Of a stretch of DNA of 64,000 bases, positions 2,113-49,490 are shown piece after piece. The notes under the pieces are model-generated. The model was not told the DNA's origin. It worked only from the letters and a program-made list of their open reading frames with translations, and did no database searches. Origin of the DNA: Bilabrum cf. latius (Eukaryota); contig OZ237743.1 in NCBI GenBank assembly GCA_965178125.1, positions 1,240,001 through 1,304,000 on the forward strand, given 5' to 3'. The position numbers and the translations under genes were made by a program. The first letter of the stretch is position 1. Every line of letters starts with the position of its first letter.

Positions 2113-3153
2113 ATGGCTTCCGGACTGGTTATCATGCTGCCGTTCCTTGGAGGAGCTGCAGCATCTGCGTGCTACGATCCGGGGCAAGTATGTCCCCCAG
2201 GATACCCTTGCTGCGGCTCGGAAGATGGTATGTGCTATCCGTACACATGCAATGGCTACTGCTAGTCGACGCCTTGCTCCCCCGACGACGACCACCCAGC
2301 ACCTCCCTCGAACGACGACGGCGGGAGCGGGCCGGCACCGACCCCTGCCTGGTGCAACGAAGTAAAGGATTCGCTGCCGTCCTTTTGCAGCACCCAGGAC
2401 GACGACTGCCTCAGCATCAAGTGCTCTGGCCATATTCTCGGGGAGCAGCTGGATGCCACGGCGACGATCAACACGTGCCACAACCCCATCACCCTCGAAT
2501 TGTCCGGTGACCTCGGCAGCATGCACCTCGACCACACCTTTGATGTTGGGCACGCGAAGCTGCCTCTCGAGCTGGGTATATCAGTAGAGCTCGATCTCAC
2601 CGCATCGTCCGCGCAGGACTCGCAACTATCCATAGACCTGAAGCTGGACGCTCCTTTCGGGGTATCAAAGACTCTCTGGTCCGCGACTGGCACCAACCCA
2701 GTGTCCTGCCCAGGCGGCAACATCCCCATGTGGGCGTACTATGCCGGGGGTGGCGCTGCCCTCCTCCTGCTGCTATGCATGCTGTACTGCTGCTGCCGTT
2801 GCTGCTGCAGCTCGCCCGACAAGCCCCAGCAGCCAGCGACCGTCCAGTTTGTCCAGATGCCGGCCAACGGCAGCGTCCAGTATGGCGCACCCCTGATGGG
2901 ACCAGGGCAGCAAGGCGGACCCATGGTGCAGCAGGTGGTGCCCACTGGCACGCAACAGCAGTACATGCCGCCGCAGGCAAACCCCAGCGTGCCGTCCGGA
3001 CAGGTGCAGCAGATGAATCGATAGCAGCAGTGGCAGCAATTTCAGCAGTGGTAGTAGCAACAACAGTAGGCAGGTCGTGTGGCGAACGCCCCGCCTCCAC
3101 CTCCACTGCCAGCTGCCGCTGCTGGAGGCCCTCCATCGTCTTCCATCAACTGA
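2113..3153 (+). CDS. Single-pass membrane protein: signal peptide, Cys-rich ectodomain, TM followed by CCCRCCC, Gln/Pro-rich tail (TAG read as Gln)
   Basis: ATG 2113 MASGLVIMLPFLGGAAASA. One frame to TGA TGA at 3151 with TAG at 2263, 3022, 3052, 3055 and 3067; the last four lie in the tract R*QQWQQFQQW**QQQ*. Confidence 0.75.
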
Positions 3154-3429: not shown

Positions 3430-6400
3430 TCACGCTCCATGCCATGCATTCACCGCAAAGAGCCCTGCCTCTGCCTGCAGCCTCTCAGAGGCGCCCAGCC
3501 CCCACACCTTCGCCTCCTCCTGAGTGACCTCGTGCTTCGTGCTCGCATGCATCGTGATTTGTCCAAGCAGCTCCCGCAAGCGGTCCTTCGCATGCTCGCA
3601 CCCACCAGGCCCATCCACATCCATGGAACACGCGCCCACTGCAGCTGTGGCCCGATCCGCATTCATCCAGGGGTACTCTTCACACTGTCGTCCACGGCCC
3701 GTTTTCCTATCCCACGCATCTGTTGTCTCTTCCTTAACGCTCACCAACAACCTGCCCAGCAAACAATCAGACCTCGCCCGCACCGAACCCGACCTCGCCC
3801 CCGTCCCCGAGGCGGCTGCACCACGGCCCAGGGCGCGCAGGATCGTCGCCTCCCAGGCCAGCGGAACATCTGCGCGGCGCCACATTGCCCCGGCAGCCGC
3901 GGACAGCCGCGCACCGAGCTCTATTTTGGCGGCTGGTTGCTGCTTCAGCAGCGACACCGCCAGCCGGACCATGTGCGCGGGCGACCTAGCCGCTAGGGCG
4001 TCGGCTCCCACAGACAGGAGCAGCGACCGGGCCATGCGGCCACGGAGATGACGAGTGGGCAGCGTGACGAGCGGAACACCCGCCGCGATGGCGTCCGCGG
4101 CCGTCTTGGATCCCCCGAACGGGAAGGGGTGCACAAGCATGTCACAGGCCCGCAGGAGCTCGATGAACCTGTCCGAGTTGGGCTGCCGGGGCACCCAGAG
4201 GACACGACTGTCAGGCGGTGGCACACCCACCGTGGCATTGTTGTGTTCCATGGCCGTCTGCTGGTGCCGGTGCCGGTGCTGGTGCTGGTGCTGGTGCTGG
4301 TGCTGGTGATGGTGCTGTTGTTGTTCTCGAAGCACTCGCTGCAGCCGGCGGTGAGTTGCCCTGGTCCATGCCCTGTTGCGGCCGTGCACCAGCACCAGCC
4401 GAGCCTAGGGCACTGCTCCCAGTATGGCAGCCAGCACGTCGTCGAGCCAGGGGTTCAGCTTGAACAGGCTCTGCGGGCAGCCGACCAGCAGGCTATCTCG
4501 TGGCAAGCCCAGTCGGTCTCTTGCCTGGGCAGCTGTGGTTGGAGGCACATGGACGGGGTCGTACCATATGCCCTGGCCCTCCAGCCGCACCAGCTGCTCC
4601 GTGTACGCCTTCCAGCCGGCCTGCGGGGGCGAATTTCGTGCCGCGCTTGGAGGGCCTCTCCCATTGGTGGTGACAGCAACCGGGTCGACTTTAGCTGCTG
4701 ATCCATCGCGTGAATCCAGTCGCTAAAGCTGCTGACGGGCCGATAGACCAATCGATCCTACCCACTGCTTTATCTTGTCAAACAGGCTGCCTTCGATCCA
4801 AGGCGCAGCATCGCTGGCGTGTGATGCATAGGCTGCAGACGATTGCGCGACAGAGTCCGCGTGCTCCGCTGCACCCTTCCTATCGTCAACCATCGCCCCT
4901 GTGCTGTCGCTCTCCATGCGGTCCCTATCGTCAACCATTGCCCCTGTGCTGTCGCTCTCCATGCGGTCCCCCGACAGGAAGTAGTCGAGCGATCCGGCGT
5001 GTCCAGAAGTCGTGGGGTTGCCCCAGAACAGAGCCTGCGCGTATGCGAGGCGAAGAAACGACGTACAAAATGCCAGCGAGCCAGTCGTTGAGTCCGCGAA
5101 CACGAGAAAGTCCGGCCGCGCGTCCCGAATGGCCGCTGCGAGACCATGCACCCTGGTGCTAACCGGCGGGGTGGCGACATCGGCGGCAGCCGCAACCTCC
5201 GGGGAGAGCCTCCACTCGTCATCCTTCGCACCCGGCCGTACCACCGTCACGTGCATTGCACTGCGGTTCAGCCGTCGCATGATACCTTGCAGCAGCTGAC
5301 CATGGGCGTGGTTCCTCGTAAAATGCCTGGAGACGAAGGCAACCCGCGCTTTGCGCCAGCCCAGGGCAAGGGAAGCATCTGGTGCCCCTGCCAGTCGAGC
5401 CAGCAGGGCGGCTGCTCTGGTCAGCCTGCGCATGGGCGGCATGGTGTGATGATGTTGCTGGCATGCGGTGCCAGAATTTACGCACGCCACTGTGCTATTG
5501 CTAGTGGACCCTTCCTTGCCTTGATCCTGTATATACTGCTGTGGCAGCCACGGGGACAGCACCGAATGCAACCGGTCGAGCCGCAGCCGTGCGGCCAGCG
5601 GCACCTCGGACACGCCGTCTGAGGCATCCGCCTCGGCATCGCTACTTCCCGCCCCCCGTCCCCATAGACTGCCCGGCGCCATGCCCGCGCTCGCGGCCTG
5701 CATCAGCGACCGGTCCCCGAACCCGTGGTACGTCTGGTAGAAGGGAACAAACTCCAACCCGGAGCCGTAATCGGGCCCCAGTCGCGGCACGGGCAGCCGT
5801 CCGTCTGTCTGCATGTGCGCGAGGGCGGCAAATGCTCCGATCGATGCCTCACGTGCCCGCAGCAAGGACCGGCGGCTACTGGCCACCGGCGGCAGGGCGC
5901 GGGAGGCCGCTCGAGACAGGAGGGTCCAGCGGTCGGGTTCCGCTAGCGCCGCGGCGCCGCCGTGCACGGCCGCACGGGTCCTATCGCCAGGTGCCTGCCG
6001 CTGGGCCGCTCTGTCCCCAAGCACCGTATGCGCACTGGGGGACCTGCCCCCAGCAGATATCGCCACTTCATGCGCGACTGCTGCAGCCCTGGCACCGTGC
6101 CCACTTGCCTGCAGCAGGGCAGCATAGTTGGAGGCGCAACCCAGGCGCCCCGCAGGAGTCAACCCTCCATCCTCTGCTCCGACGGTTTGACCACCACCGG
6201 ATTGGCCACCACCGGATTGGCCACCACCGGATCCAGCGAGACCCAGGGCGTATTGCACGGCTGCCTCAGCTTTCCTGCCCTGCACGTGCAGCGCGGCTGC
6301 CGCCGTGCACGAGGCCCGCCGGCTGATAGCGGGGGACAAACAGCCTGCCATCAAAGCCTGGGCCGCGGCCGCCCGCAGGTCCAATCCACTGGTGGACTGG

Positions 6401-6485
6401 TCCGCCGCCAGCAGGAGCACCCTCGCGGCCCAGGCCCTGGCCCAATCGGGCACCAGCGGGAGCTACCCAGGGCCCGACCCATCGA

Positions 6486-6520
<35 letters not shown>

Positions 6521-8391
6521 ACTTGACCGGACCCAAAGCAACGGCACAGCCCGAACAGCGAGAGTGGGAGGTCCTGCTTCCCGCAGGTCCCCTTATTCCC
6601 TGCACCACCATGCATTGCACCCGTGCTATCGGCCTGCATCTCGATCACGCCGTCCTCGCCTAGCGCCCTGTCCCAAGCAGGTCCCTCCCCCGGGCATGCC
6701 CCTCTGGTCCTGAGGGACGCACCCACGGGGTCTTCTTCCTCTCGATCTTGCTCCTCCTCTTGTTCCCCGCCACTGTATGCCGCAGTGCCAGGCACCCAAG
6801 GAGGGAGGCCGAGGGGAACACCAGCGGCGGCGGATCGCAACGCCCCCGCAGCTGCCAGCACCGGCGACCACGCGTCCCCCGCAGCGTCCTTCCCCTCTTT
6901 GGCCATGCTGGCCCTCATCCTCGCGGCCATCTCGAGCTCCATCCCGCGCACGCACATCGAGGACCGCTCGATGGCTCTGTGGACATGCGGGCCCACCTCC
7001 TCCCCGTGGGACTCAAGGACGCCCAGCACGTCCAAAGCACCGCCGTGCGATGCACCCTGCCCGCCACTGCCCACTTCACCGGCAGCGGGCATCACGGTGT
7101 GCCCCATGGCCCCGTGCCTCGCCAGCAGCGCGGCCACGAGCACACGCCCGGGGCCCCTCGGCAGCAGCCTGTAGGCCGCGCTGAGCAGGCCAGAGGCAGA
7201 CCCGGCGGTGCTTCCTGGTGACAGCGATCCGGATAGAGATACATTGCCCTGGCCTCTGACATGATTTTCAACTTGTTCCCCGGTGGGTGGGTCGTGTGAT
7301 GAGTGCTCTAGGTTCCGCCTACGGATGGCGGCTGCTGTTTCCACGCTTCGACGCGCCTCTTTGGCCACCCTCTGGTGCCAACTCAGGGACCCATAGCCAC
7401 CCTCCTCCTCCTCCTCCTCCTCCTCCTCCGCCTCCTCTCCCACCCAGCTCTAGTCACCACCGTGAGCCGACCTGGATGGACCACCGCCACCCCTGGCACT
7501 ACGCCCGGCACCAGCACCTCCCACCGACGGCGACGGCCCATGCTCCCCGGCTCGCAGCAGCTCCAGCCGGCTTGAACCGAGGACGGCCCTGGCCATGCCC
7601 TGGCAGGCCCGGGTGGTTGCAACCGCGACCTCCAACCAGGCCTTCAGAGGCACTACCATCCTAGCCTAGGGGCGGCTGCCTGCATCCGTCTCCACGCCGA
7701 TGCCCGCATCACGGCTGGTACTACCGGCAGCGCGAACATCGATGTCGACAGCCCCGAGGGCGGCTGCCCCTCGCTGGCACGCCCACACGGGCATCGTCAC
7801 GGTGCGGCGGTGCCACCAGTGGCTTGGGCGCAGTTGGCGGTGCGCTTCGACAGATCGACGCAGCCATCCGTCCGCTGTGCCAAGCGTGCGAGCGTACTCG
7901 ACACCAGAGATACCAATGGATGCTAGTATTCTATCGGCCGCTTGCAGCCGCACCATTGCGGCGCCTGCAGCCATGGGAGCGCACAGCAGGCCGTCCAGCA
8001 CTCGGCCTTGCCGCTACTTCGTCTCGCACATCACGAGCTAGGTGCATGCACTGGCGCCTCCAAGAAGCAATCTTCGAACTTCATGAATCTTTGCCAATGT
8101 GTTTTGGTGGCTAGCGCCGTAAATTAGGGTCTCGACCGAGATCTGCGACGGACCAAGCCGCAAGGTAGCCGGAGGTGCTTGGCAGTGTGCAGCTCTTGTT
8201 GTTGCGATCTCCACGCAGTCTGCTGCATCAGACAGTCGGAGAAGATGCAGTGATGCATGTCCCACTGCGCGAACTGTGCTAAGTGCAGCTTCACTCATGG
8301 TGCCATCGGCCACCATTCTGGCGTTTACGACGAGGAGGACAAAGAGCGCAACGACAGACGCAGTCCGCAGACCAACGGTACACAAAGGCAT
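3430..8391 (-). CDS. GT41 family (OGT/SPINDLY/HMW1C-like) glycosyltransferase with N-terminal hydrophobic segment, about 1,650 aa (7 in-frame TAG)
   Basis: Seven same-frame ORF pieces joined only by TAG (8038, 8014, 7666, 7450, 6463, 4723, 4405). Motifs RVAFVSRHF..HAHG, FWGNPTTSG..LDYFLS, PQSLFKLNP, PFPFGGSKTAADAIAAGVPLVTL, GRMARSLL. Ends TGA. Confidence 0.8.
4880..4970. repeat. Coding tandem duplication, about 45 nt x2 (MESDSTGAMVDDR)
   Basis: cctatcgtcaaccat(c/t)gcccctgtgctgtcgctctccatgcggtc occurs twice. Confidence 0.85.
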
Positions 8392-8517
8392 GTTATGGCC
8401 CCATAAAATACAGAAGAAATGATGAGCTAAGCGGTTCCTGCCGCCCATAAATGCAGCATGCTTGTACTTCCGGTCTGAGCCAACATACCCACCGTGACGG
8501 TGATCCGATCCTGATCA

Positions 8518-9609
8518 TCACAGCTCGTCCCCGCCAGGTCCGGAGCCCTCGGAGAACTTGAAGCTGCCCGCCTGCCGACCCCGCGCGCTTGCGCTTGCCT
8601 TGCCCGCCCCCCCTTCGCCGCCGGCCGCCGCTGGCAGCCGCTTCCACTTGCACCTGTCCTTGTTCTTGCATCGCCCCATGGGCAGCGAAACCGAGTCCAG
8701 CTCCGCGCACGCGGTGCCGCAACCCGCCTGCGGAACCGATGGCACCACCGGGGTGCCCATCCACAGGCCCGCCATCCCGACCTGCCCCCTTCTCTTCCCC
8801 AGCTTTGGGTGCATGGGCGGGGCCCCCACCCTCTGCCCCGCATGCTGCCGGGCCTCGGCGCGGGCGGGCGCGTCGTACGCGTACGAATCGGCTCCGGATG
8901 CGGAGAAGACTCCCGAGGACCCGCCGCTCCACGCGCTTCCTAGCTTAAGCCCGCCGGCGATGGGCATCACGTCCCAGCGCAGCGACAGCGAGACGTTGGC
9001 GCCGCGGAGCTTGCTGCTGTCGGGGCCCAGCAGGAGCGGGTACTCGACCGGCTCCTCGTGCAGGCTCAGCACTGCGTCTTCCGGCTTGTCAATAATGCTA
9101 TCCCATACCGTGTGGCTTCCGTACGACTGCGATTTCACTGAAAAAGATGGAATAGAGCGCGGTGGGCAGTCGCGGGCGTCCAACGTGTCGAGAGCATCGA
9201 TCCAAGCATCGCACAGCTCACGCCGTCTTTGGTCTGGTAGTCGGCCACTACGAACAAAAATACTTGCTTAGTATTCCAATCAAATAGACCGCTCAGGTCT
9301 GCTTCCAAGTCAATGGAAAATTCAGCTCGCCGGACAGTCGTCCTAAAAAAGTAGTGCTACCAGTCATCTATGAGATCGACGCTGCTAACTTTGAGTGTGT
9401 CCACGGTCCACTTGTGCTATACAGTAAACGATCTGCGGACGCTGAAGATTGCGGGTGTGAGGGTAAGCAGTGGGCCCAGGTAGTACGCAGTGGCCCCCCA
9501 AGACTGTGTTGCGAGCTGCTCACGTTAGCCAAGATGCGACTGCAGCGCTGGTCAGCGCGCCCAACCCGTAGAAAAAAATGGCATTCAAGCGATTAAGCAG
9601 CGTGTGCAT
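8518..9609 (-). CDS. SPCS3: Signal peptidase complex subunit 3 (SPC22/23), 3 exons, with C-terminal extension ending GDEL
   Basis: Exons 9609-9524 (MHTLLNRLNAIFFYG), 9432-9222 (DLEADLSGLFDWNTKQVFLFVVADY; TAG at 9417 and 9357) and 9126-8518 (VWDSII, LRGANVSLSLRWDVMPIAG). Introns are GT-AG and in phase. Confidence 0.88.
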
Positions 9610-10325: not shown

Positions 10326-11609
10326 ATGCTGGGTCGGCTTGTGGTCGGTGCGGTTCTGTGTTTCGGTGTTGTGGTGCCAATTCTGGTCCATGCCCAGTCT
10401 GATGAATCATACGGCGATATTCACCGACAAGGGCATGCTGGCAACGGCATAGCTAGTTGTTGTGAATCATAGTGCGGCGACTCTGATCCATAGAGATAGT
10501 ACCCGATTAGTCGATCAAACAAGTGGGAGGAAATCTGCAAATCTGGCGAAAAACCCGACGACCTTGTAAAGCTTTGGGATACGCCGGGGCATCCATTCGT
10601 CTATGGTGACACGATGAACATAAAAGCGAAGCAATGGTACAGTCGAGACTGCTGCGTTTGTCCGCCGGGAAAAGAGGGACGTGTGATTATATTGATGGCG
10701 GACACCAGAGATCCTACCAAAGGATTCAAAGAGGGTGCGAAGCTAGGCCAAACACACTACCACACGAAAGCTGCGCTTGTCAACCAGATGTATGCCAAGC
10801 GGTACGGGTACGACTTCAGGTACGTGATCCCAGCAGTCTGGAGCTCGATGCGAGAGCACATCCGGAAGGCCGCCAACTTGACGGGCAGCTACATCGATTG
10901 CAAAAAGCACCCTGTGACTTACAAGTGGAAGCAGAACTCTGCAAGGGCCGGGGCATGGACGAAGCTCCCCGCGGTATGGCACTACACCTACAAGTACGAC
11001 TGGGTCGTCCACATCGATTCGGACAGTGTCTTCAGAAACCACAGCTGGTCGCTGCAGCGAAGCCTGTCTGCCATGCGAAATGAGCAGGACTTTTTGCTTA
11101 TTTCAGACATGGCATACGAGTTTCGTTTACCTTGTACGGGAATATTTGTCATGCGGGGAGGCGCCCGTGGGCGCGCAAGGTTGGAGACGTGGTGGAATGT
11201 TACAGACTATGCGCACATCAAGGGAATCTATGAGCAGCGGGGCATGCGCGTCCGCGGAATGGCGGACTTCGACTCGAAGGAGTACGATCCCGATTTCTCA
11301 AAGGCAGGTGTCAGGCTGGATGTCCCCCAATTCTACCAGTCTGGGCGCCGGTGGCCTGTGCCGGGGAATCACAGCTGGGTCACGCACATCGGTACAGGGG
11401 AGAGACACAATCGCGAGAAGGTTCTAAACCAGCTTCTGGGCGAGTTTGGGATCGACACGGACCAGAAGGCCGCTGAGGCAGTGAAGCCCCTCGCAGGCTC
11501 GGTGACCTGGCTCGACACGACAGAGGTCTCGATGCACATGGAGCACGTTCCCGGAGGAAAAGCCCATCATCAGAGCATGTTCGAGGGCAAGTTTGGGCCA
11601 GTATGCTGA
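10326..11609 (+). CDS. GT34-like (MNN10/GMA12-type) glycosyltransferase with N-terminal signal/anchor
   Basis: Motifs YAKRYGYDF, WTKLPAV, YDWVVHIDSD (DxD), CTGIFVMR, YEQ. Reading TAG at 10470, 10491 and 10497 as sense extends the ORF to ATG 10326 MLGRLVVGAVLCFGVVVPILVHA. Confidence 0.75.
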
Positions 11610-11977: not shown

Positions 11978-13753
11978 TCACCTTCGCCTGCCCCCACCGC
12001 CCATCTTTCGCTTCATGGCCTTGCGCATCGCCGCCACATTCGGCATGCCCCCTGCCCCGCCCCCGCCCAGCATCCCGGCCAGGGCACTCATGTCCGGCAT
12101 GCCCCCTGCACCCGCACCCGCGCCCCCCGCGCCACCCCCCATCATGGCCTTGGCCATCTCCATGATGCCACCCCCCCCGCCCCCCTGCATCATCTTCTGC
12201 AACCCAGCCATGCCCCCGGGCATGCCGCCGGCGCCCCCAGTTGCCGGCCCCTTGCCGCCCTTGCCCCCAGCGCCCCCCTCCATCGCCTGCATCATCTTCA
12301 TCATGTTCCCCACGCCCCCCATCCGCTGCAGCACCTCGGGGTTGCCCCCGAATGCCTTGGCCAGCTGCTGCTGCACGGCCCTCGGGTCCCTCTTCATCTG
12401 CGACTTGAGCGCCGCTTCATTCTGCAGCAGCTTGCTCTGCTTGAGGCCCTGCATCAGGCTGCCCATCTGCCGGGCCATGTCCACCATCTGCACGATGGTC
12501 TGGATCGGGTGCCCGGACCCGATGGCGATTCGCATGCACCTCGAGTGGTCCAGGGCAGAGCCCAGGTCGGCCTCAAGCTCTTTGTGCGTCAGCGAGTCGA
12601 GGATGATGGTGAACCGCTTCAAGTGCGCCGTGGGGTCGGCACCGGCGGGCGCGTTTGCCATCATCTGCGACATGCCTGGGATCATGCCGACCATCTTTGA
12701 CAAGCTGCCCATGCCTGTGAGCTGGTCCATCAGCTGCTTGAAGTCCTTCAGGCACAGCTTCTTGCCCTTGATCATTGTCTTGCGCATGTCCTCCATCGCC
12801 TTCTCGTCCATCGTCTCACGCACCGTCTCGGCCAGCCCCGCGAGGTCACCCCGCCCCAGCAGCTTGTTGACGAACCGCTTCGGGTCGAACGGGTCCAGGG
12901 CGTCGAAGTGTTCCCCTGAGCCCGTGAACGCCACCGGGCTGCCGGTCGCGATCACGGCAGACAGGGCACCCCCGCCCTTTGCGTGTCCGTCTAGCTTGGT
13001 GATCACCACGCTGCCCACCGCCACGGAGGCCTTGAAGGCGGCTGCCTGCGCCTGGGCCGACTGCCCGATGGTGGAATCCATGACGAAGACCACGTCGTCG
13101 GGGTCCACGGCCTGGTGTATGTCCTCCATCTCCTCGAAGAGGGCTTCTTCTTGCTGGTGCCGCCCCGACGTGTCCACGATGATGAGGTCGAAGCCCTCCT
13201 TGCGGAAGGCCTCCACGCCCTCCTTGGCGATCTTCACCGGGTCCGGCTGGCTGTAGGAGCCGTAGTAGGGGACGTGCAGCTTCTGCGCGTTCTGCTTGAG
13301 CTGGTCAAATGCGCCCGCTCGGAACGTGTCGGCGCACACCATGCCCACCTTCCACTTGCGCTGCTTGTAGTAGTTCGCATACTTGGCCACCGTTGTCGTC
13401 TTGCCGGCTCCCTGCAGGCCTACAAACATGATCACGTTGCCACCTTTCTTCTTTTTCTTTGGTTTGTACGGCTCTGTTCCCGGATCTAGCATCTGAACCA
13501 AGCCATTGAACACTGCTTGCTCCACCAGTCTCGCAGTCTGCACACCAGGAGCACTTCGTGCGGCTACCTCGCTTTTTACGCTTCGCCGCAGCTGGGCCAC
13601 TGTGTGTGCATTAACATCTCCCATCACAAGGGCGCGGCAGATTTCGCCGAGGACGGAATCCACAAGCTTTGCCTCTTCCTCCTCAGTTTCCGTGGGTCTT
13701 TGCAGGGAAGCAAGTGCAGACGTGATCTGCGACCCAAGCCCCGAAAGCACCAT
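11978..13753 (-). CDS. SRP54: Signal recognition particle 54 kDa subunit
   Basis: GLQGAGKTTT, CADTFRAGAFDQL, DTSGRH, TKLDGHAKGGGALS, and a Met-rich M domain with a long Gly/Met tail. No internal TAG; ends TGA. Confidence 0.97.
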   Translation of the reverse strand: MVLSGLGSQITSALASLQRPTETEEEEAKLVDSVLGEICRALVMGDVNAHTVAQLRRSVKSEVAARSAPGVQTARLVEQAVFNGLVQMLDPGTEPYKPKKKKKGGNVIMFVGLQGAGKTTTVAKYANYYKQRKWKVGMVCADTFRAGAFDQLKQNAQKLHVPYYGSYSQPDPVKIAKEGVEAFRKEGFDLIIVDTSGRHQQEEALFEEMEDIHQAVDPDDVVFVMDSTIGQSAQAQAAAFKASVAVGSVVITKLDGHAKGGGALSAVIATGSPVAFTGSGEHFDALDPFDPKRFVNKLLGRGDLAGLAETVRETMDEKAMEDMRKTMIKGKKLCLKDFKQLMDQLTGMGSLSKMVGMIPGMSQMMANAPAGADPTAHLKRFTIILDSLTHKELEADLGSALDHSRCMRIAIGSGHPIQTIVQMVDMARQMGSLMQGLKQSKLLQNEAALKSQMKRDPRAVQQQLAKAFGGNPEVLQRMGGVGNMMKMMQAMEGGAGGKGGKGPATGGAGGMPGGMAGLQKMMQGGGGGGIMEMAKAMMGGGAGGAGAGAGGMPDMSALAGMLGGGGAGGMPNVAAMRKAMKRKMGGGGRRR

Positions 13754-13972: not shown

Positions 13973-14488
13973 ATGGCCATGGCGCGCTCCTCCCGCAGCA
14001 TCATGTCCGCTGTACGATCTGTTGCCGCTTCTGGGTCCCGGCGCTGGTTGTCTGCAGCTGCCGCTGACGCCAAGAACGACGAGCTAGTGTTCACGCTTTC
14101 GGTGCCTAGCCGCTCTTTGGTTAACAATCGCACCGTCAAGCGAGTGACCGTGCCCGCCGCTGAGGGAGAGCTTGGTTTGGAAAAGGATGGCCCAGCCAGC
14201 CTTTTGGAGCTGCGCCCGGGCATCGTGGATGTGCTGAACGAGGATGACAGCAGCGATAAGTGGTTCATCCCCGGTGGCTTTGCCTTCTACAACCCCGACA
14301 ACACGCTGGCCGTGTCTACACCGGAGGGAGTGTCCGTAGATGAGATTGATGAGGACGCGATCAAGACTGAGCTGACCCAGTGGCAGGCGAAGCTTGCCTC
14401 TGCCGAGACGGGCTCCAAGGAGGAGGCCGAGGCGACGATCGTGGTGGACATGTACCGCGAGCTGCAGGCATCCATGGGCCGCCTGTGA
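13973..14488 (+). CDS. ATP16: Mitochondrial F1Fo ATP synthase subunit delta
   Basis: Arg/Ser/Ala-rich presequence (RRWLSAAA), VTVPAAEGELG, LRPGIVDV, WFIPGGFA and a C-terminal helical hairpin. Ends TGA. Confidence 0.9.
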   Translation: MAMARSSRSIMSAVRSVAASGSRRWLSAAAADAKNDELVFTLSVPSRSLVNNRTVKRVTVPAAEGELGLEKDGPASLLELRPGIVDVLNEDDSSDKWFIPGGFAFYNPDNTLAVSTPEGVSVDEIDEDAIKTELTQWQAKLASAETGSKEEAEATIVVDMYRELQASMGRL

Positions 14489-14711: not shown

Positions 14712-16823
14712 TTATTCCGTCTCAAGCATGCTCGCCCAACCCTCGGCCACCCTCGCCACTGCCTCGCTGCAGACGGCGGGCGTTTCTGCCACAACCTTGT
14801 ACCTGCACCGACCGTCCTCCCGCACAGACACGATGCCTCGCCGGGCCCCGCCGCACCTCAGCTGCACAAGCGCCACCCGCCGCGCCCCCGGGAGCGCCGG
14901 CCGCGGCCCCGCCCCTGTCGCCACCCACGCCCTCCAGTCCTCGTTGGCCCAGGCAAGCTCCCGCCTGGCCTGCTGCCCCATTTCCTCCCTCTCCCCCGCA
15001 CCGGGGGCATAGGGGTCCCTTCCGTCCCCGTCCACCCACACCCCCCCATCCCTCAGGTCCTCCTCACCCGGGGAACAGTTGTCCCCCCCGTCCATCAGCA
15101 GCACGATCCCGTCCAGGCCCGCCCTCCGCATGGACCAGGGGCCCAGGGCAGCGGCCCCGTCCCCCTCGAAATCGGGAGACACGCGCCAGGAGCCCGGACC
15201 AGACACATCTCCAACACCACCACCAACACCATCACTGGCCCCGTTCCCGTTCCCGTCGCTGCTGCTGTTCCGGTTAAGCAGGGGGCTCAACGCGGCTGCG
15301 GGTGCCAGCCCCAGGGACCCGAAGAGGGCCGCTCGGGGCACAGAGGCACGATGCGAGCGCCACGCCAGCGGAACCTAAGGGGGCGCCGCGCCATTCTCTG
15401 CGCCTGCCGATGCCGTGGACTGCGTGCCGCGCTTGGCCGCGCCGTCTGACGCAATGAGACCTCGCGGGCCGTGGTTCCGCACGCGCTCCGCCGCGCGGCG
15501 CCGCCATTGGTCGCGCAGGCGCTGCGCCTGGGCGAGCTGCTTGCCCGACGGAACCGGCAGCGCACTGGGGTCTTCTTTCGGCTCCGAGTCGGCGCCATCA
15601 TCACCGCCATCGCTCCTGCGCCTCTTTCTCTTGTTCCCTCGACCCCTGTTCCCCCCGGGCCCGAACCGCGCCCCCGCCGGGGGCTCCTCACCGCGGGCGA
15701 GCGCCTTGCTGCCGGCACTCCCGTCACCCTCGCCCACCGCCTCTGCCGCGGCACGGGCGGCCTTCGGGCCCAGCATCCACCTGGCCATCGGCGGGGAGCC
15801 CTGCTGCTCGGGTGCTACCGCCAGCGGTCCCTATCCCTGTCCCAGTCCCAGGTTCGGCCCTGCGGCCATCCAGGCGTGCAGCAGGACAGGCGGGGCGGGG
15901 ACGGGGTCCCGCGTGGCCCCCAGGTCGGGGGATGACGAGTGCAGGAACAGGCCCGACCACTCCCCCAGTGTGGCGGGGCGCGTGCCAGGCTCGGGGTCGG
16001 GGCCTGTCGCGGGAGGCTGCTCCTTCTCCTGCCCTTGCTCCTGCTGCTCGTCTGCTCCAAGGCTCGCCCCCACCTCGGTCTGGTTGTTCTCTGGGGCGGT
16101 CCACCCCCTGGGCACCTCCCACTGCGTGAGGTTCCGCAGCCAGCAGAGCTCGAAGACCTGCGGGGGCGTGCCCGATTCCGCGGCGCCCCCCTTGACGGCC
16201 TTGGCGGGGAGGGCGGGAGTGCGGACGCAGGGCTCCTCCCACAGCAGCGGCCACAGGGCGGCATCCGGGCCCCAGCGAGACGCGTACAGCGAGGCAATGC
16301 CCCGGTGGGACTGCGCGGCGAACGCGGCCGATTCCACGGCGCGCTGGTGCGCCAGCCGAGCCGAGTGCATCTTTGCAGGGGTCTTGGCTTTCCGGATCGC
16401 TCGCCTTGCCTTTCCCATGGCATCCATGGCCTCTTTTACGCCGTCGTGCGAGCGCTGTATGGTTGATTGCAAGCTTTTTTGCGTTCTGGCTGCCTGCTGC
16501 AGGCGGTCGGACGGGCTGCTCAAGGATGCCCACGCCTCGGCTCCTTCGCGGTGCGCCCTGGCAAATTCCCTCAGCCACGCAACATGATTCCTCCCAGCTT
16601 CCGCACATTCGGACTACTCCACTGAGCAAATATGATCAGGATCAGTGGGTTTTTCCTAGTAGCAGCCACAGCAGCCCAAAATGCCATACCCATCTGGTGC
16701 GCCATCCGTGCCATCTGAGGCGAACGCTACGCCGCCGCTAGAGGATAACTGGCACACCTGCTCTGCGCGTGGCAAGGATACGTGTATTAGTATGATTAGT
16801 GTGAACAGGAACGACCCTGACAT
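14712..16823 (-). CDS. Glucosidase II beta/PRKCSH-like protein with C-terminal MRH domain (4 in-frame TAG; ends TAA)
   Basis: ATG 16823 gives signal peptide MSGSFLFTLIILIHVSLPRA, then a Cys-rich segment and a helical segment. The C-terminus MDGGDNC...VQLRCG...VSVREDGRCRYKVVAETPAVC resembles an MRH domain. TAG at 16656, 16614, 15831 and 15375. Confidence 0.65.
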
Positions 16824-18458: not shown

Positions 18459-18954
18459 TCAGAAGTCAAACGGAACAGAGGACAGCGTATTCAATTCAAA
18501 TATAACATACGGACGAGATGGTAATCCTTGCATGCCGCAACATGCGACCGCGAGAGGCCATCCAAAGCAGGATAGAGAAAGGATGCCCCCGCTGGAGCGC
18601 TCCGTGCCTCCAGAGAGGATCTCTCACGTCTGGCCAGCTGCAATGAGGTATGAACAACAGATCGAGAGACCCTGCTGACCTTTTGCATCTCGCTAGAGCT
18701 GCAAACTGGCCTATGAGGCAATATCATGCAGCAGACAAAATGCAGACGCAGCGGGTAGCGTGTACATTTAGATGCTTCTCGAGTCGTACGCTCTACACGT
18801 CTTGCAGCTGCAACTACGCTCAGTTTTCCTAAAAATTGCAAGTGCTAGTATACGTTGTATAGGTGCACGGCTGCCAGCTCTAGCTGATTTTCTTGGAAGG
18901 CCTTGATCGCGCATCAGAACACTAGGTCCGGCTGCTTTGACACTGTCCATTGGG

Positions 18955-21828
18955 ATGGCGTACAAGGCATTCTTGGCAGGGATGGTTTCCCCCGCTGCGT
19001 AGCACAAGGAAGTTCGACACGATCTCGAGCGGATGCAAAAGATGGGCCGAGTTCGGGTCGCTTAGGGAGCTTTTTCCAACCCGGGACTCGTGGTTACCAC
19101 GAGCCCGTTCAGCTCGCCGCAGCAATCACACGGAACACGCAGGCCCAGCAATGCACCCAATTCAGCGGGAAGCATAAATCCAGCGTATTCAAACGGCGCC
19201 TCTGCCCGGCCAGGGAGCCGGGGAGATTCACCCGCATCGCGCGGAAGCAGACGAGCATCCCGCCTGCCGTCGCCAGACGCGGGGACAGTCCCGCAACGGG
19301 GCAGAAACGGAAATGCAGACACCCCGCAGTCGCTCGCTAGCAATGGATCGCCATATGGAAGTGACCGCATGATGCTGCACGCGGCCGATGCGGCGCCCCA
19401 GGAGCGGTACCTGGCACCGGGCGCCCAGCGCGCCCGCTCCGAGGCACTTGCTCGCGGTGGCCCGCATGCGGCGGGGCCCAAGGCCCACGTGTACCCGGGG
19501 CAGAGCCCCCCGCCTCCGCCCCCGCCCCGTGGCCCCGCCACATCGCAGCCCGGCCCTCACGCTGGGTATGACGAGTGGATCCCGGCAACGAGGGACGAGG
19601 CAGAGCTGCTGCGGCGCATCCAGGAAGAAAAAGAGAAGCAGGAGGCGGCGCAGCAGCAGCTCGTGGCACTGGTGGGTGCATCGCACGGCGGTACGCCTCA
19701 CGGGTACACCCATCAGCGGGACGGCGATTGCAGACAAGGGAGTAGCAGGGGCAGCGGCGGAGGCGGAGGCGCGATGTCCGTGGCAGGAAGCACCGCGGGG
19801 AGCGTGGGCACGACAGGAAGGTTCCGCAGTGGTGCGCGGCGCCGTGGCACGGACCGCGGCTTGCGCGTCGGGTCCCCGCACTCGTCACCATCCCCCCCTG
19901 GATCCGGATCTGCGGGCCGGGCCAGCGTGACGGCCCCCCCGCTGGGCGTGGATGGCTCTGGGTATGGTTCTGGGTATGGCTCTGGGGTGGGGGAGCTGCG
20001 GGAGCTGCGGCGGCGGCTCCGTCGCACGAGCCAGCGGGTTGCAGAGCAAAGGCACGACATGACGGCGCAGGCGCGTGAGCTGCAGGCAGCCACGCGCGCG
20101 GCGGGGAGCGCCAGCAGCCAGCTGCTGCAGTCCTCGAGCGAGCTGCGGGAGTACAAGGAGAGGGTGGGGGAGCTGGCGGGACTGCTCCGGCAGGTGGCCG
20201 CCAGGGCCATGAGGGCGGACCCGTTGAGTCCCCGGGAGATGCACGAGCTGTCGGCCGCCGTGCAGCAGGCCATGCCCCCGAGCGGGGTCGGGGGGAATTC
20301 CCCAGGGGGCAGGCAGGGGGGCAGGAGGCAACCGCACTCGTCACACCAGCAGCGGTCGCCTCTGGGCGGTGCGGACGGGGCCGGCCCTAGACAGCCGTGG
20401 GGCGCCGGCCCTGGGCTGCGAGCGGGTGGCGCGGCGCCGAACGGTTCCGCAAGATCCCCCGGCGCGCGCACGCCCAGTCGCAGGCAGTACGGGCTGGGAT
20501 CGACGCAGCCGCAGCCCCCCAGGGCGCGCAGGGGACCGCTGATTGACGGTGGGGGCCCCAGGGGATCTCCCCTGGGACGGGAGGGGGCATCCCCTGACGT
20601 GTACGTGCCCCCGCGCCCCACGGCGTAGGGAAGCGGAACCAATGGGCAAATGCGCGGCGCCGGCTCGAGGGCAGACCTGGAGCGGGCCATGCGGGAGGGG
20701 CAGGAGGGGGACCTGGCGGTGCTGGGGGCCAGGGAGGAGCTGCTGGCGCTGGCGGTGGAGGCAGAGCGAGGGGCAAGGGCGGTGGAGGCAGCAGCCGCTG
20801 GTGTAGGAGGAGATGGGGGAGGAGCAGGGGTGCTGCCTCGCAGCGGGGGCAGCAGGCTGCCAGCAGTGGACGAGGACGAGAACGGGGAGGAGGAGATCGG
20901 GGCTGCAGGGGTCGGGGCAGCCGGACAGGAGCGCAAGGAGGGCGAGCACCAAGTGGGGGAACAATTGGGGGAACAAGGAAAGAACAAGGGGGATGAGAAA
21001 TACGGGGTGCTGGGAATGGAGGCTGGCATGGGCATGGCAGTTGGAGGAGAGGGGGGGCCTCATCAGCGGGGCAGCGGGTGGTCCCCCGCAGCAGAGGGGT
21101 CTCCCACCACGAGAGGCATCGCGAGGATGAGCGGTAGTCCGGGGGTGGGCCTGGGCGACGGGGGTCTTGGCAGGGGCAGGGTGGGCCTGAGCGGGAGTGT
21201 GGGGGTGCATCGCCCTGCAGTGTCGCCGCCAGTGAGGCCCATCCAGCGGCCGGGGCCCTCGCACTCGCCCCCACAGTCGGTCGCCCCCGCATCGAGCCGT
21301 CAGGGCGCATTGCATGGCGATGCAGGCGACGAGGCCGCCTCGGGCCTGTCGCCCATGCCCCGGCCAGAGCACGCGCGACCCGCCGCTCAGGTGGTCAGCC
21401 TGCCAGCCCACTACCAGCAGCAGCAGCAGCAGCCGGAGCCCCAGCACTATGGCGCCGGCAGCAGCCCGGTCTCCCCATCCCCATCCCCATCCCCATCCCC
21501 ATCGCCGTCCTCCTCGTCCCTGACATCCTCCTACGAGCGAGCATCTGCGCAGCGGGCCGCCCTGTCACTGGAGGATGCCAGCAGGATGGCAGCCGCGGAG
21601 GCAGCCGCAGAGGCGGAGGAGGCGCGTGCCAGGGAACAAATCGAGGCGGAGGGCCCGCTGTCCATGGGCGAGCGGGCGCGGGTGGCAGCGGGCAGGGACG
21701 CCAGGCCCAGGCATGAGGACCGAATCGATGGGGAGGGCGGCAGACCGCGGTACGTGGTGCCACCGCCCGTGGTGATCACTGGCCCTCAGGCGATGGAAAG
21801 AAGGAACATGCAGGAACAGCATGAACTG

Positions 21829-21866
<38 letters not shown>

Positions 21867-24800
21867 CCCGGACCAGTCGCAGGGAGCAAGCCAAGGCCAC
21901 GACTAGGGACTGCCGACGGGGCCTGCCTCGCAGAATGCAGGCCATGCCAGAAGCACCAGCAGCACGTCGCACCAGCCGGAATCCCCCAGAGACGCGGTCG
22001 TTATCCCAGGCACTGCGCCTGCACCTGCACCTGCTTCGCCCCCTCGTCCAGCAAGCGTGTATGCATCGGCACAGGCACAGGAACTGACGGGCGCGTTGGT
22101 AGCCGACGCACAGGCACAAGGATCTGTGCCCCGCCCCGCAGGCACACCACCGCCGGGTGCAGCTCGTCGAGCCGGGAGCTCGCATTCTCCCGAGCATGAG
22201 GCTTCCGGGGAACGAAAGCAGCAGAGCAGCGAGGCTAGCCAGCCCACGCCGGAGGCTCCTGCCGGCGCGAGGCCTGCCAGTGGTGGAGACCCTGAACCTG
22301 CAAGTGGGTCTGGTAGAGGCGGTGGCAGCGGCACTGGTACCTCGGCAAGTGCCGTCGCACTATCCGACCAAACGACACCCAGCAAAGAAGCAGCAGCAGC
22401 AGCAGCACCAGCACCAGCACCAGCAGCACCAGCACCAGCACCAGTGCCAACAAAAGCCCCGCCATCCTCCACTTCGCCCGGAGACAAAGCCAGTCCCAGG
22501 GCTCGCAAGCCCATCCCAAGGCCTGGAGATGCAGGGGGCATCCCCACGCCGATCGTAGCTGATGGAGCCGCCGACGTGGGCGATGATACGGCCGTGCCAA
22601 GCGTGGAAGCTCAAGCAGCTGAAGCAGTACCCGCACCCGCACCAGCATCGGCACTGTAGCCAGCGCCCGAACGAAAGCAAAAGCCCAGCGAGCCAAACGA
22701 GGATGTTGGGTAGGGCGAGGCCGGTGATAGTCCGAACGAGCAGTAGCACAAGGCACGGCTAGAGGGCAGCGAGAAGGCCCAGGACCAGGAGCCCATGCCT
22801 GCCATGGCACTGGCGTTTCTGGCTGAAGATGCTGGCGGTGGCGCTGGTGCCGGTGCTGACTCAAGCTCGACTGGCAAGGCAAATGGGGATGGTAACGAGA
22901 GAGTGGTCGGCAGCGGTCAGGCATCGAAGAAGAAGCCCGTGGCAAGCCAAGGCGCCAGTGCATCGCATCGTGACCGACCAAAGGAGAAAGCTTCGGAGGC
23001 AGCAATAGCAAGCGAGGATGCCCCAGAGTCTGCGATAGTTTCTGAAGAGTCAGCCGAGGCAAAGCCCGCAACTGCACCTGCACCTGCACCTGCACCTGCA
23101 CCTGCACCTGCACCTGCACCTGCACCTGCACCTGCACCTGCACCTGCACCTGCACCTGCACCTGCACCTGCACCTGCACCTGCACCTGTGCCCGCAGCAT
23201 CAGAACCAGCCCCAGCCCCAGCCCCAGCCCCAGCCCCAGCCCCAGCCCCAGCCCCAGCCGCAGCACCGGCGTCAGCCCCAGCCCCAGCCCCAGCCCCAGC
23301 ACCAGCACCGGCGTCAGCACCAGCGCCAGCACCCAAGCCGACTCTCAAGGCTCTCAAGTAGCAGCTAGCGGCTGAAGGAAACAAGAAAGGCAGTGGCAAG
23401 TCCAAGGATGCAAAGACTGGACCCACAGGATCCAAGGCAAAGGCAGCTGGGGTCAAGGCCAAGGCAGCGAAGGGGAAGGGTAGGCTTGCGGCACTGCGGT
23501 CCAAGCTTAAGGAGGAGGAGAGTGACAAGCACAAGGGGAAGGAAGCAGACAAAGCCAAGACCAGCGGTAAGGCAAAGGCTGACGCTGCCGAGGCTGGGTC
23601 AACTGGGCCTGCTAGCAGCCGCACTGGCACTGGCACTGGCACTGGCACTAAGCCCAAGCCTCAGCCACTAGCGGCCAAGAGCGCAGGCCCGCCCAAGAAC
23701 CCGAGCAAAGGCAAACCGACGGACAGTGGCAAGGCTGCAAGCAAGGTCACTGCAGGCAAGCTGCCCCCGCCGCCATCGCCAGGCACCGCCTCCGGCAAGC
23801 ACACTGGAAAGGGTAGCGGCAAGGGCAAGACCACGGGCAAGCCGGCTCCCAGCTCTGGCTCCAGTGCTGCGCTGCCTCCGCCACCAGCCCCTGGTTCCAG
23901 GTCGAGCCGAAGTCCCGCTGGTTCGCCGCCCGCCTCGCTGCCCCCGTCCCCGAAAGGGTCTCCGCTGGCCAAGCCAAAGCCAAAGACGACGGGCAATGGT
24001 AGTCTGCCGCCACCACCAAGCAGTCCGTCCGCGCCCCCGAGCAAGAAGGGCTCTGGCACCAAGACCAAGGCAAGCAAGGCCAAAGGGCCGCCGCCTGCCA
24101 GCCCGCCGCCCAGCCCGCGCACGAAATCTGCCCTACCTGGTCCGCCTTCCAGCAAAGGACCGCCTTCCAGCAAAGGACCGCCTTCCAGCAAAGGACCGCC
24201 TTCCAGCAAAGGACCGCCTTCCAGCAAAGGACCGCCTTCCAGCAAAGGACCGCCTTCCAGCAAGGCCAAGAGCAAGAGCAAGACGCTGCCGGGACCACCG
24301 GCAAGCCCGCCATCAGGCAAGCCGTCTGCGTCCAGCAGCAAGCTCCCGGGCCCCCCGGGATCCCCGCCGCCGCCTGCATCTGGGGCTAGCAAGACGAAGG
24401 CATCGCCGAAGTCGCCCCCGCCATCCCCCAAGGGGCCCCCAGGGGCAGCACCCCCCAGCAAGGTGAAGAACAAGGTGAAGGGCAAGGCAGGCATGGGCCC
24501 GCCACCAGCTGGCAAGGCAAGCAAGGGGCTACCGCCAGCTGGAAAGCCGCCGAAAGGAGCCAAGGCCAGTCCACCACCAGCTGGCCGCAGCGGGAAGGGC
24601 AAGGCCCCTTCGGCAAGCAAAGGACCGCCTTCCAGCAAGAGCAAGGGCAAGGGGAAGAGCAAGAGCAAGACGCTGCCGGGACCACCGGCAAGCCCGCCAT
24701 CAGGCAAGCCGTCTGCGTCCAGCAGCAAGCTCCCGGGCCCCCCGGGATCCCCGCCGCCGCCTGCATCTGGGGCTAGCAAGACGAAGGCATCGCCGAAGTC

Positions 24801-25368
24801 GCCCCCGCCATCCCCCAAGGGGCCCCCAGGGGCAGCACCACCCAGCAAGGTGAAGAACAAGGTGAAGGGCAAGGCAGGCATGGGCCCGCCACCAGCTGGC
24901 AAGGCAAGCAAGGGGCTACCGCCAGCTGGAAAGCCGCCGAAAGGAGCCAAGGGCAGTGATAGTGGGAGCAAATCTCTGGCAGGGAAGAAAGACAATGTGC
25001 CTGGTCCGCCGTCTAGCCCGGGCCCGCCCAAGCCAAGCAAGGCACCACCGAGCAAGAAGAGCGCAGGCCCGCCCAAGCCAAGCAAGGCACCACCGAGCAA
25101 GAAGAGCGCAGGCCCGCCCAAGCCAAGCAAGGCACCACCGAGCAAGAAGAGCGCAGGCCCGCCCAAGCCAAGCAAGGCACCACCGAGCAAGAAGAGCGCA
25201 GGGCCCCCAAAATCGAAGCCACCAGGTGCAAGTCCCGGCGCAGGACCCCCCAAAGGCCCGCCCCCGGCTGGCAAGGCCTCCAAGGGCCCTCCAAAGGGGC
25301 CCCCAAAAGCGAAAAGCAAGGGTCCTCCCAAGAAGAAAGGCCCTCCTAAGAAGCCACCGCCGTCATGA
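18955..25368 (+). CDS. Very large (about 2,100 aa) low-complexity protein with coiled-coil segments, poly-AP and a Pro/Lys/Ser-rich repetitive C-terminus
   Basis: One frame from ATG 18955 to TGA 25366, broken only by TAG (19000, 19063, 20626, 21904, 22657, 22711, 22744, 23359). No catalytic domain recognised. Confidence 0.7.
23074..23335. repeat. Coding hexanucleotide microsatellites (GCACCT)n and (GCCCCA)n encoding poly-Ala-Pro
   Basis: Directly visible. Confidence 0.95.
24143..25200. repeat. Nested coding repeats: 18-nt units (PPSSKG), a near-identical about 295-nt duplication (about 24271-24565 and 24658-24952), and 45-nt x4 (GPPKPSKAPPSKKSA)
   Basis: Directly visible in DNA and translation. 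Confidence 0.9.
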
Positions 25369-25568: not shown

Positions 25569-26321
25569 ATGGGTACGCACGGCCCCAACGCCCCCCCTAG
25601 TAGTAGCGAGGGGATCGCAGTAGCTATTGCAGCAGATGTTGGTGCCAGTCTATGCGACTGCATCACGGACGCGTGCATTTGCCCGGCATCCGCCATTTGC
25701 TGTTTATGGCCGTGTCTAATTGGCCAAATAGGTGCTGTGTCACGGCGATGGCCTCTTGGTGCTCCATCGCTTGGGTGGAGCATAGCTTTCACATCGTTCT
25801 TGCTTCTGCTCTTCTTAGTCCTCAGCTTTTCCGATTTTTACGTGGAAGAGGACGGAGATAAGACACTGGATAGGTTCATTGATATTATATGGCTTGTTCC
25901 AACCCTGGGTATCGTTGCCACAGTTTATCATTCGAGAATGCAAGCTCGAGACTTCCTAGGCCAGCAGCCGTAGCCTTGCGACCTGATCCAGGCATGCTGC
26001 TGCCCGTGCTGCGTGCTTGGCCAGACTGCGATTGAGCTCCACGTCGAAAATCCATACGCTTGCACTGATTTACGATAGACCGGTCGGCAGCAGCGTTCAA
26101 GCACAGCAGATGAGCTCCAGAGGGGCAGGCAGGACCAGCGAACACTGGAGCACCAGCTGCACAAGAATTCAAGCGGGTTAGAGCTGGTAGCGGTGCTGCC
26201 AGGGGACTGCTAGAGCAGTCTAGATGCATTGAAGTCGATGGAAGCAGGCTCGCGGGGTGCTTTCAGTAGCAGCGAGACGGCCTAGGACGGCGATTGCCAT
26301 GCTGATGGGGAGCCGGTGTGA
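25569..26321 (+). CDS. PLAC8-family Cys-rich membrane protein
   Basis: CCLWPCLIGQ, two hydrophobic helices, then QQP*PCDLIQACCCPCCVLGQ. The second PLAC8 motif lies after the TAG at 25971. Four TAG in total; ends TGA. Confidence 0.8.
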
Positions 26322-28264: not shown

Positions 28265-28471
28265 GTGTAGTACCCGCGATGCGGCAGTATCAAATTTGCA
28301 CTAATGAGAGAAACCGTGGGGAAAAGTATCATCAAGTCGCCGTCATCATCACACTCGGCCAAAGACTCCGCCGGTCGATTGCCGCACTTTATTGGCTACA
28401 TCACCCTAGTTGCGGCAGGTGCGATACCTGAAACCTGTTTTGTTGGCGGTTTCACGCGAGTTTCCTCGAGC

Positions 28472-37947: not shown

Positions 37948-38429
37948 GGTTCGAAGTCTTTGACAGGTAGCTAGGCCTGCAAGCAGCGAGGCCCGAGAAC
38001 GCAAGACTGCGAAGCGAGCAAAGTAGAATTGCATAAAAACACCGGATGAATCGATAGATAAGGATATAATGAGTAAGATTCATGTGTTACACGGAAGTAT
38101 ACTCACGGATTCGTAGAATGGTGTAAGATGAAAGCCACGGTCGTCGCACCTTGGCAAACCTGCACGCTACAATGGACCGGTGGTCTGCAATTTTGGTTTG
38201 TGCCCAATTCGGCTGTTCAGCAAATAAAACGAACGCACCGCCGCAACTGGCTCGTATTAATATACCGTATATATCTGCTGCCTCCGCGATATCTTCTTCC
38301 ACCTCGCTAGAGGTGGACAGGTCCGGAGCCCACCGTCCGGGCCTCGTGATTGGGGGCTCCAGTCCAGTACTGTAGAGGAACTACGGTCCGTCAGACGACC
38401 AAGTGAATGGATTAAAGTATTTGGAGGGA

Positions 38430-49297: not shown

Positions 49298-49490
49298 GCT
49301 GGAATGGAATGCATCTCGTTTTGCTCTGGGAGACAGCATGACAAGCGCTCCGCATGACTGGGTGTATCTATAATAATGATTCTCAATATGCTTTCCCGGG
49401 GTGTTTGTCAGGTTCGGTGCTGTGCGCAACTAGATTCGGAGTGGCCAAAAGGCGCTGCTGGCAGTTGCACTTGGGTACACACTCTCTCCG

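Follow-up and report, generated by a model that had tools for sequence, protein, structure and literature searches.

Results

Genes at the locus

The window, by which we mean the whole stretch of 64,000 nucleotides that was analyzed, is eukaryotic nuclear DNA with a GC content of 63.7% (GC3 of 72-87% in four genes). It is intron-poor, and four GT..AG introns of about 90-180 nt were found within the 19.7 kb covered by read mapping. Its products include SRP54, the ATP synthase delta subunit, signal peptidase SPC22, ITPase, aspartate-semialdehyde dehydrogenase (ASADH), a two-pore-channel-type protein (TPC), GT41, a PRKCSH-like protein, two AMP-binding enzymes, DCC1, and PLAC8-like and lipocalin proteins. 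We chose 23 gene frames by hand (17,318 codons), and 14 of these genes contained 73 in-frame TAG codons. Four further TAGs in added exons brought the total to 77 in 15 of the 23 frames. The annotated features are as follows.

2113..3153, plus strand: Cys-rich single-pass membrane protein of 346 aa with a Gln/Pro-rich tail, bearing the first poly-Gln tract; 5 TAG, the first at 2263; ends TGA TGA
3430..8448, minus strand: GT41 (O-GlcNAc transferase-like), 1672 codons; 7 TAG, each located upstream of the best match to the GT41 domain; ends TGA
8518..9609, minus strand: signal peptidase SPC22; GT..AG introns 9433-9523 and 9127-9221; TAG 9419 and 9359 in exon 2
10326..11609, plus strand: gene of 427 aa with a weak GT34 match below the cut-off; 3 TAG; ends TGA
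11978..13753, minus strand: SRP54, used as taxonomic marker; no TAG among 35 Gln codons; ends TGA
13973..14488, plus strand: ATP synthase delta subunit; no TAG; TGA end at the same place as in the L001 orthologue (see below)
14712..16823, minus strand: glucosidase II beta (PRKCSH)-like; TAG 16658, 16616, 15833 and 15377; ends TAA
17015..18447, minus strand: last two exons of an AMP-binding enzyme; intron 18211-18310; TAG 18368, 18338 and 17290, all in spliced contigs
18937..25368, plus strand: low-complexity frame, 2143 codons; 8 TAG; ends TGA
25569..26321, plus strand: PLAC8-like gene (below the Pfam cut-off); 4 TAG; ends TGA
28181..34888, plus strand: kinase-like gene, 2235 codons; 13 TAG, including 32012, 32111 and 32135 in an acidic tract; ends TGA
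38151..43094, plus strand: TPC; 5 TAG; ends TGA
43179..44513, minus strand: ASADH; one TAG, 43835; ends TGA
45083..49297, plus strand: RanBP-type zinc-finger protein; 5 TAG, one of them (45116) inside a zinc finger; ends TGA
49401..50237, plus strand: DCC1-like oxidoreductase; 2 TAG; ends TGA
50431..54525, minus strand: gene with a weak UBA-like match, 1364 codons; 9 TAG; ends TGA
54892..57516, minus strand: gene with the second poly-Gln tract (56955-56935), 874 codons; 6 TAG; ends TGA

The membrane protein at 2113..3153 matched no family above the cut-off in a Pfam search. Between the convergent 3' ends of its gene and the GT41 gene lies a 53-bp repeat in two copies that are 93% alike (3202-3315). 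A single contig of sequencing run X5 (1978-4252) covers both genes, and their 3' UTRs may overlap. In SPC22, about 130 residues (8518-9126, minus strand) follow the end of the Pfam match without a stop, and transcript contigs extend to 8448. The AMP-binding enzyme (17015-18700, minus strand) has two 5' introns; its exon 2, which holds two TAGs, and the frame upstream resemble a mitochondrial targeting sequence. The protein of 18937-25368 (plus strand) is rich in Pro, Ala, Lys and Ser, with tandem repeats of 6, 18, 45 and 387 bp and no Pfam family. ASADH is of a type common to Cafeteria-like protists, red algae, fungi, and some bacteria and archaea, and has two lineage-specific inserts, one with a TAG. 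Further, three neighboring minus-strand genes without known family (54892-57516, 58361-59599 and 60352-62316) share a 40-residue segment of 85-93% identity; their low-complexity proteins are otherwise unlike one another, so that they form a small tandem family with one conserved motif. Three pairs of paralogous segments were found in the window, none of which spanned a TAG.

TAG interrupts otherwise open frames

When TAG was counted together with CAG and CAA, it made up 77 of the 779 Gln-type codons in the gene frames (9.9%), beside 558 CAG and 144 CAA. The number of stop-to-stop frames of at least 600 codons was 8 under the standard code, 15 with TAG read through and 8 with TAA read through. 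Reading through TGA gave 27 such frames, which we take to be shadow frames because genes with a homologue-fixed C-terminus end at TGA. Several single-chain proteins are split by TAG. Two TAGs (39939 and 39948) separate the two Ion_trans halves of TPC, which is a single protein of 1189 aa in Cafeteria; the TAG of ASADH occupies an insert that is lineage-specific and lies within the C-terminal Pfam domain span; and TAG 9359 falls within the Pfam SPC22 match. Note that 28 of the 73 TAGs are found within the first 25% of their own frame, and some of the 5'-most ones may be upstream of the true start.

The initial annotation had drawn attention to a poly-Gln tract in the membrane-protein gene. The 21 codons that it quoted are present, spanning 3007-3069 and not starting at 3001 as it had given (3001-3006 reads CAG GTG). 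TAG occurs in this tract at 3022, 3052, 3055 and 3067, in frame with the ATG at 2113 and the TGA at 3151-3153, and the tract is covered without differences by the unspliced X5 contig (1978-4252) and by run X4. At the mean in-frame TAG rate of the window, four TAGs would very rarely fall within 21 codons (P = 1.8e-6); the number is unremarkable if TAG is taken as one Gln codon of the tract (P = 0.05). The second tract, on the minus strand at 56955-56935, reads CAG CAG TAG CAG TAG CAA CAA exactly as annotated, and the TAG reported within a GQG*G motif was found at 15833-15831, minus strand.

TAG exchanges with CAG between orthologues

A scan of metagenome contigs with SRP54 gave one locus, L001 (4535 bp), among 209 candidate stretches. 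L001 is syntenic with 13.4-17.6 kb of the window, with 70-81% nucleotide identity and 59-88% protein identity, and carries eight in-frame TAGs of its own. The order and orientation of the AMP-binding, PRKCSH-like, ATP synthase delta and SRP54 genes are fully kept, and 46-62% of third positions differ.

The four pairs of genes were aligned after each TAG had been replaced by X, which gave 1164 aligned codons. There were 12 informative TAG columns, from two genes and one relative. Seven of them faced CAG, one faced TAG, and four faced other residues (Ala, Ser, Leu and Lys); none faced Glu. Three of the four columns with a non-Gln partner had at most 3/10 identical neighbors, and the nine columns with at least 4/10 comprised seven Gln, one TAG and one Ala. 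Given a Gln background of 3.2%, seven Gln among 11 non-TAG partners has a binomial probability of 1e-8. The log-likelihoods of other residues were below that of Gln by 11 (His), 14 (Met), 15 (Glu), 16 (Ser), 17 (Tyr), 24 (Leu), 34 (Lys) and 36 (Trp). As controls, 42/45 TGG codons faced Trp, 16/23 Tyr codons faced Tyr, and 88/141 Glu codons faced Glu.

The exchanges ran in both directions. The PRKCSH orthologue of L001 contains six TAGs, four of which face CAG and one TAG in the window. In the AMP-binding gene, TAG 17290 of the window faces CAG in L001, and two TAGs of L001 face CAG in the window. Two L001 TAGs lie in columns with 10/10 and 9/10 identical neighbors. Further, 3' of the first TAG of both species, PRKCSH retains 63% identity over 580 codons, with differences of 0.29, 0.26 and 0.58 at codon positions 1, 2 and 3, and the AMP-binding gene retains 74% identity over 82 codons. 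Divergence past the first TAGs is thus still concentrated at third positions, which indicates translation of the sequence downstream. P0254, a database protein predicted under the standard code, terminates precisely where the AMP-binding gene of L001 has its first TAG.

More distant homologues were less informative. Among 93 homologues of the AMP-binding enzyme, one L001 TAG column held Glu in 37 and Gln in 26, with Gln in most of the nearest homologues shown; the other held Gln in 22 and His in 20; and the window TAG column was unconserved (Ala 30, Gln 4). The TAG columns of TPC (five) and ASADH (one) were gapped or variable against 9 and 17 homologues, respectively. Against solved structures, the GT41 TAG column showed Asp or Arg and was variable or gapped, and the alignment of SPC22 exon 2 stopped short of the TAGs. 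As for further relatives, none were found in viral contigs, and genome contigs gave only prokaryotic ASADH (32-45%).

The comparison of orthologues at TAG columns, which the initial annotation had proposed, bore out its reading: 7 of 11 non-TAG partners were CAG, none was Glu, and none was Trp or Tyr. TAG therefore very probably encodes Gln, and this is well supported because of the orthologues and not because of the poly-Gln context on which the initial annotation had relied; that argument is weak and fails outside the two tracts that it had chosen. Its remark that TAG is one C-to-T step from CAG fits the seven Gln partners, all of which are CAG, and adds little since CAG accounts for 65 of the 74 aligned Gln codons.

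TGA and TAA end the genes

Since the first TGA or TAA was taken as the end of each gene, the count of zero TAG stops is partly circular. Among the 21 complete frames, 19 end in TGA and two in TAA, and three L001 genes end in TGA. The ends that are fixed by homologues, namely those of SRP54, ATP synthase delta, the AMP-binding enzyme and PRKCSH in the window and of three genes in L001, are all TGA or TAA. With TAA as a Gln codon in proportion to the CAA/CAG ratio, some 20 should be present; the frames have no more than two, each at a frame end (P = 5e-7 given this model). For one window gene that ends in TAA, the orthologue in L001 has its end, a TGA, four codons later.

UAG might encode Gln internally and still stop some genes, depending on context as in Condylostoma and Blastocrithidia, or it might be ambiguous, with tRNA and eRF1 competing for it. 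Such dual use would agree with the minor share of TAG (9.9% of Gln-type codons, mostly in poorly conserved regions) and with the distance of 12 codons between a stop and the TAG closest to it; note also that ends without homologues are not independently fixed. However, all seven homologue-fixed ends (four in the window, three in L001) are TGA or TAA, and TAG was not depleted within 50 codons of stops in this small sample (7/73 TAG versus 49/684 CAG/CAA). Strong competition from termination would leave little full-length protein from genes with 7 to 13 TAGs. A seeming shortage of TAG in housekeeping genes (P = 0.002) was dropped, since it gave P = 0.12 once four TAGs in missed exons were counted. 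We therefore consider a remaining role of UAG as a stop unlikely, and a code in which TAG encodes Gln and both TAA and TGA are stops (NCBI table 15) is highly probable.

Two further observations concern gene ends. When three genes were compared with homologues by eye, there was no support for former TAG stops, now read through, as the origin of long C-terminal tails: SRP54 and the AMP-binding enzyme end where their homologues do, and ASADH extends some 30 residues further, with a junction that contains no TAG. A tandem TGA TGA follows 3 of the 21 complete genes (3151-3156; 8515-8520 and 60349-60354, both minus strand), against a per-position background of 2.3% (P = 0.011, as one of several tests). 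In ciliates with reassigned codons, tandem stops are reportedly under selection.

Local codon context does not decide the residue

The initial annotation had also suggested tabulating the codons that flank TAG. In the window genes, Gln occurred within two codons of TAG in 22 of 284 positions (7.7% versus a background of 4.0%, P = 0.003; 73 TAGs). Without the two poly-Gln tracts the count was 8/264 (3.0%, P = 0.84), and the excess of Gln was gone. A context classifier assigned TAG to Glu, or to Asp without the poly-Gln tracts. It called 19 of 59 control codons correctly and 40 wrongly, and CAA was also called Glu. Thus the context cannot decide the residue, and we rejected it as a test.

These calls bear on whether TAG encodes another residue, in particular Glu as in Blastocrithidia and one oligohymenophorean ciliate. 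The Glu reading draws on the classifier, which ranks Glu first (Asp without the poly-Gln tracts), on the Glu-rich column of the AMP-binding family, and on the three TAGs in an acidic tract, which were located at 32012, 32111 and 32135, within the interval given by the initial annotation. In contrast, none of 11 TAGs faces Glu in L001, whereas 88 of 141 Glu codons do, and Glu lies 15 log units below Gln; the classifier misses 40 of its 59 controls and calls CAA Glu as well. The answer already offered to the acidic-tract objection, that Gln too occurs in such runs, held in eight genes: between acidic residues, CAA (6/96) and TAG (4/57) are found equally often. A residue other than Gln is very unlikely.

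TAG is retained in spliced transcripts

Most of the SRP54 gene was contained in 7 of the 24 runs listed, from three studies, and four of them (X4-X7) were mapped on 1700-21400. Contigs of X5, X6 and X7 skip GT..AG introns, whereas those of X4 do not; from the spliced joints we infer that X5-X7 are transcript assemblies, although none of the listed runs is annotated as RNA. They come from two studies other than that of the runs covering the window fully, and X4 may belong to the source study and would then not be independent. Over 1700-21400, no alternative letter was present at a 10% share in X4-X7, so that four runs from three studies agree, and no TAG/CAG polymorphism among strains was seen. 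Five TAGs, two in SPC22 (9419 and 9359, both in X5, X6 and X7 contigs) and three in the AMP-binding gene (18368, 18338 and 17290), lie inside spliced contigs with no differences and no gaps. At least 19 of the 27 TAGs of 1700-21400 lie in listed pieces of X5-X7. In the PRKCSH-like gene, one X6 contig has a base inserted at 16030 and a base missing at 16036; the change is frame-neutral and represents an allele or an assembly quirk.

The five unchanged TAGs argue against introns, editing and assembly error. Under the standard code, TAG would have to be removed from mRNA by U-to-C or A-to-I editing or within small introns. Both CAG and TGG are one edit from TAG, and contigs drop rare variants, such that low-level editing could escape; however, the spliced X5, X6 and X7 contigs keep TAG at the SPC22 and AMP-binding sites with no other letters and no gaps, and we regard removal from mRNA as most improbable. 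That the frames are pseudogenes or assembly errors has nothing in its favor except the stop triplets themselves and can practically be dismissed, because every one of the 77 interruptions is a TAG, in frames that are otherwise open for up to 2235 codons; because the TAGs of a second species lie at other sites and are followed by divergence biased to third positions; and because four runs from three studies give the same letters. The TAG-bearing genes are intact, transcribed, spliced and under purifying selection. UAG is present in frame in spliced transcripts, exchanges with CAG, occurs in genes that end in UAA or UGA, and is found in two species. That TAG is a sense codon is virtually certain.

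Probable placement of the window near bicosoecid stramenopiles

The best named match of ASADH was Cafeteria roenbergensis (55%; fourth among the 120 matches listed), as was that of TPC (44%; first of 13). TPC and ASADH adjoin in the window, and since the locus tags of their Cafeteria matches are 27 apart and the contig size listed for both is 597,713, we infer that the two genes are also linked in Cafeteria. In an SRP54 tree (48 of 121 possible rows), the window fell into a clade with ochrophytes and other stramenopiles (SH-aLRT 99), and its subclade adjoined Bicosoecida sp. CB-2014 (81); no Cafeteria-named SRP54 was among the 120 matches listed. A quick ASADH tree (56 rows) gave an 18-row clade with Cafeteria and environmental proteins (97), and the TPC tree, which came with a long-branch warning, joined the window to the Cafeteria group as its sister (80/82). 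The three single-gene trees agree, with long window branches and few named taxa. The window contains no 18S rRNA. We conclude from these proteins that the window appears to derive from a bicosoecid-like stramenopile that is distant from Cafeteria itself.

Discussion

Our analysis points to a nuclear code in which UAG would be an ordinary minor glutamine codon and UGA (the main stop) and UAA (a rare one) would end translation, as in NCBI table 15. UAG would be read by a tRNA-Gln that has CUA as its anticodon, lies one change from tRNA-Gln(CUG) and should be unable to pair with UAA, and recognition of UAG by eRF1 would be lost or weakened. Such a tRNA/eRF1 route is likely in view of established tRNA pairing, as argued in the available text of PMC5304391 and PMC11687900. 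Neither the window nor L001 contains tRNA genes, suppressors included, and eRF1 is not among the window genes scanned. The code change would be older than the split between the species of the window and that of L001.

The same assignment has been described in unrelated lineages. In the nuclear code of Iotanema spirale (Fornicata), UAG encodes Gln, and termination is left to UAA and UGA (Panek et al., 2017, PMC5304391). As here, the assignment was inferred from sequence, and the tRNA-Gln(CUA) of Iotanema was predicted and not seen, according to the available text; a T32G change in its eRF1 was reported (PMC5304391). Iotanema belongs to an unrelated supergroup, however, and UAA is its predominant stop, whereas 19 of 21 complete genes end in TGA and 2 of 21 in TAA here. 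In the ciliates Hartmannula sinica, Trochilia petrani and Protocruzia tuzeti, UAG encodes Gln and UAA is a stop (McGowan et al., 2024, PMC11687900). UAG is spread over 78-91% of the genes in these ciliates (PMC11687900), compared with 15 of 23 frames here. They are alveolates with 27-54% GC, and UAA ends 87-98% of their genes, in contrast to 64% GC and rare UAA here; the authors explain the retention of UAA as a stop by its heavy use (PMC11687900).

In table 6, used by many ciliates, hexamitid diplomonads, Streblomastix, ulvophytes and Amoeboaphelidium, both UAA and UAG encode Gln (PMC11687900). UAG is thus read alike in table 6 and here, whereas UAA is also Gln there and no internal TAA was found here, where about 20 would be expected. 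The crAss-like and other gut phages are said to use table 15, as shown by proteomics. Their codon table is the same, but bacterial translation uses RF1 and RF2, whereas a single eukaryotic eRF1 must tell UAG from UAA here. Nuclear codes that split UAG from UAA are rare; those listed in PMC11687900 belong to one rhizarian, Iotanema, Scotinosphaera and a few ciliates.

Cafeteria burkhardae (roenbergensis) and Halocafeteria seosinensis are the nearest sequenced bicosoecids; they provide the best named protein matches and have intron-poor genes, as here. Both presumably use the standard nuclear code. Cafeteria and the window share only 44-55% protein identity, however. The GC content is about 70% in C. 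burkhardae and 46.8% in H. seosinensis (bioRxiv 10.64898/2026.06.25.734631). The accessible portion of that preprint on the Halocafeteria genome makes no mention of genetic code, stop codon or TAG, and the discussion of a non-standard code in Cafileria, in the portion available, concerns the mitochondrial code only (PMC6723347).

In searches that covered the main texts of the open literature, we found no nuclear stop reassignment in a stramenopile. Nor is such a case present in the available text of the Halocafeteria virus preprint, a review on stramenopiles (PMC11412368), PMC12152300, PMC12153298 or PMC12220804, and the list of UAG-only codes in the Discussion of PMC11687900 names no stramenopile. 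The reassignment may already be on record in the supplementary tables of code surveys or with the authors of the 2025 runs. The code itself is already known as table 15, and what we describe is probably an independent origin in a lineage without an earlier report. On balance, we favor the view that the reassignment is the first of a nuclear stop codon in Stramenopiles, an old and clade-wide change of UAG to Gln in bicosoecid flagellates, which arose in a GC-rich genome with UGA as the main stop and UAA at about one-tenth of gene ends. The two species on which this view is based differ at 46-62% of third codon positions.

If this is true, the separation of UAG from UAA is accounted for neither by codon capture under AT pressure nor by frequent UAA stops, and must be due to an eRF1 that recognizes UAA and UGA and not UAG. 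The present GC content need not equal that at the time when the code changed. AT pressure has been invoked for Blastocrithidia (PMC12153298). A new origin with reversed stop usage (UGA dominant, UAA rare) and high GC would make it testable why UAA and UAG usually change together. DNA and spliced-RNA runs, apparently from the same organism, exist in three studies, so that tests of the tRNA, of eRF1 and of codons genome-wide are feasible. Because standard gene callers truncate the proteins of this lineage, as with P0254, it is under-annotated in databases. Finally, if the reassignment is confirmed, we speculate that in this clade the code may form a barrier for the types of giant virus and virophage that are known from Cafeteria.
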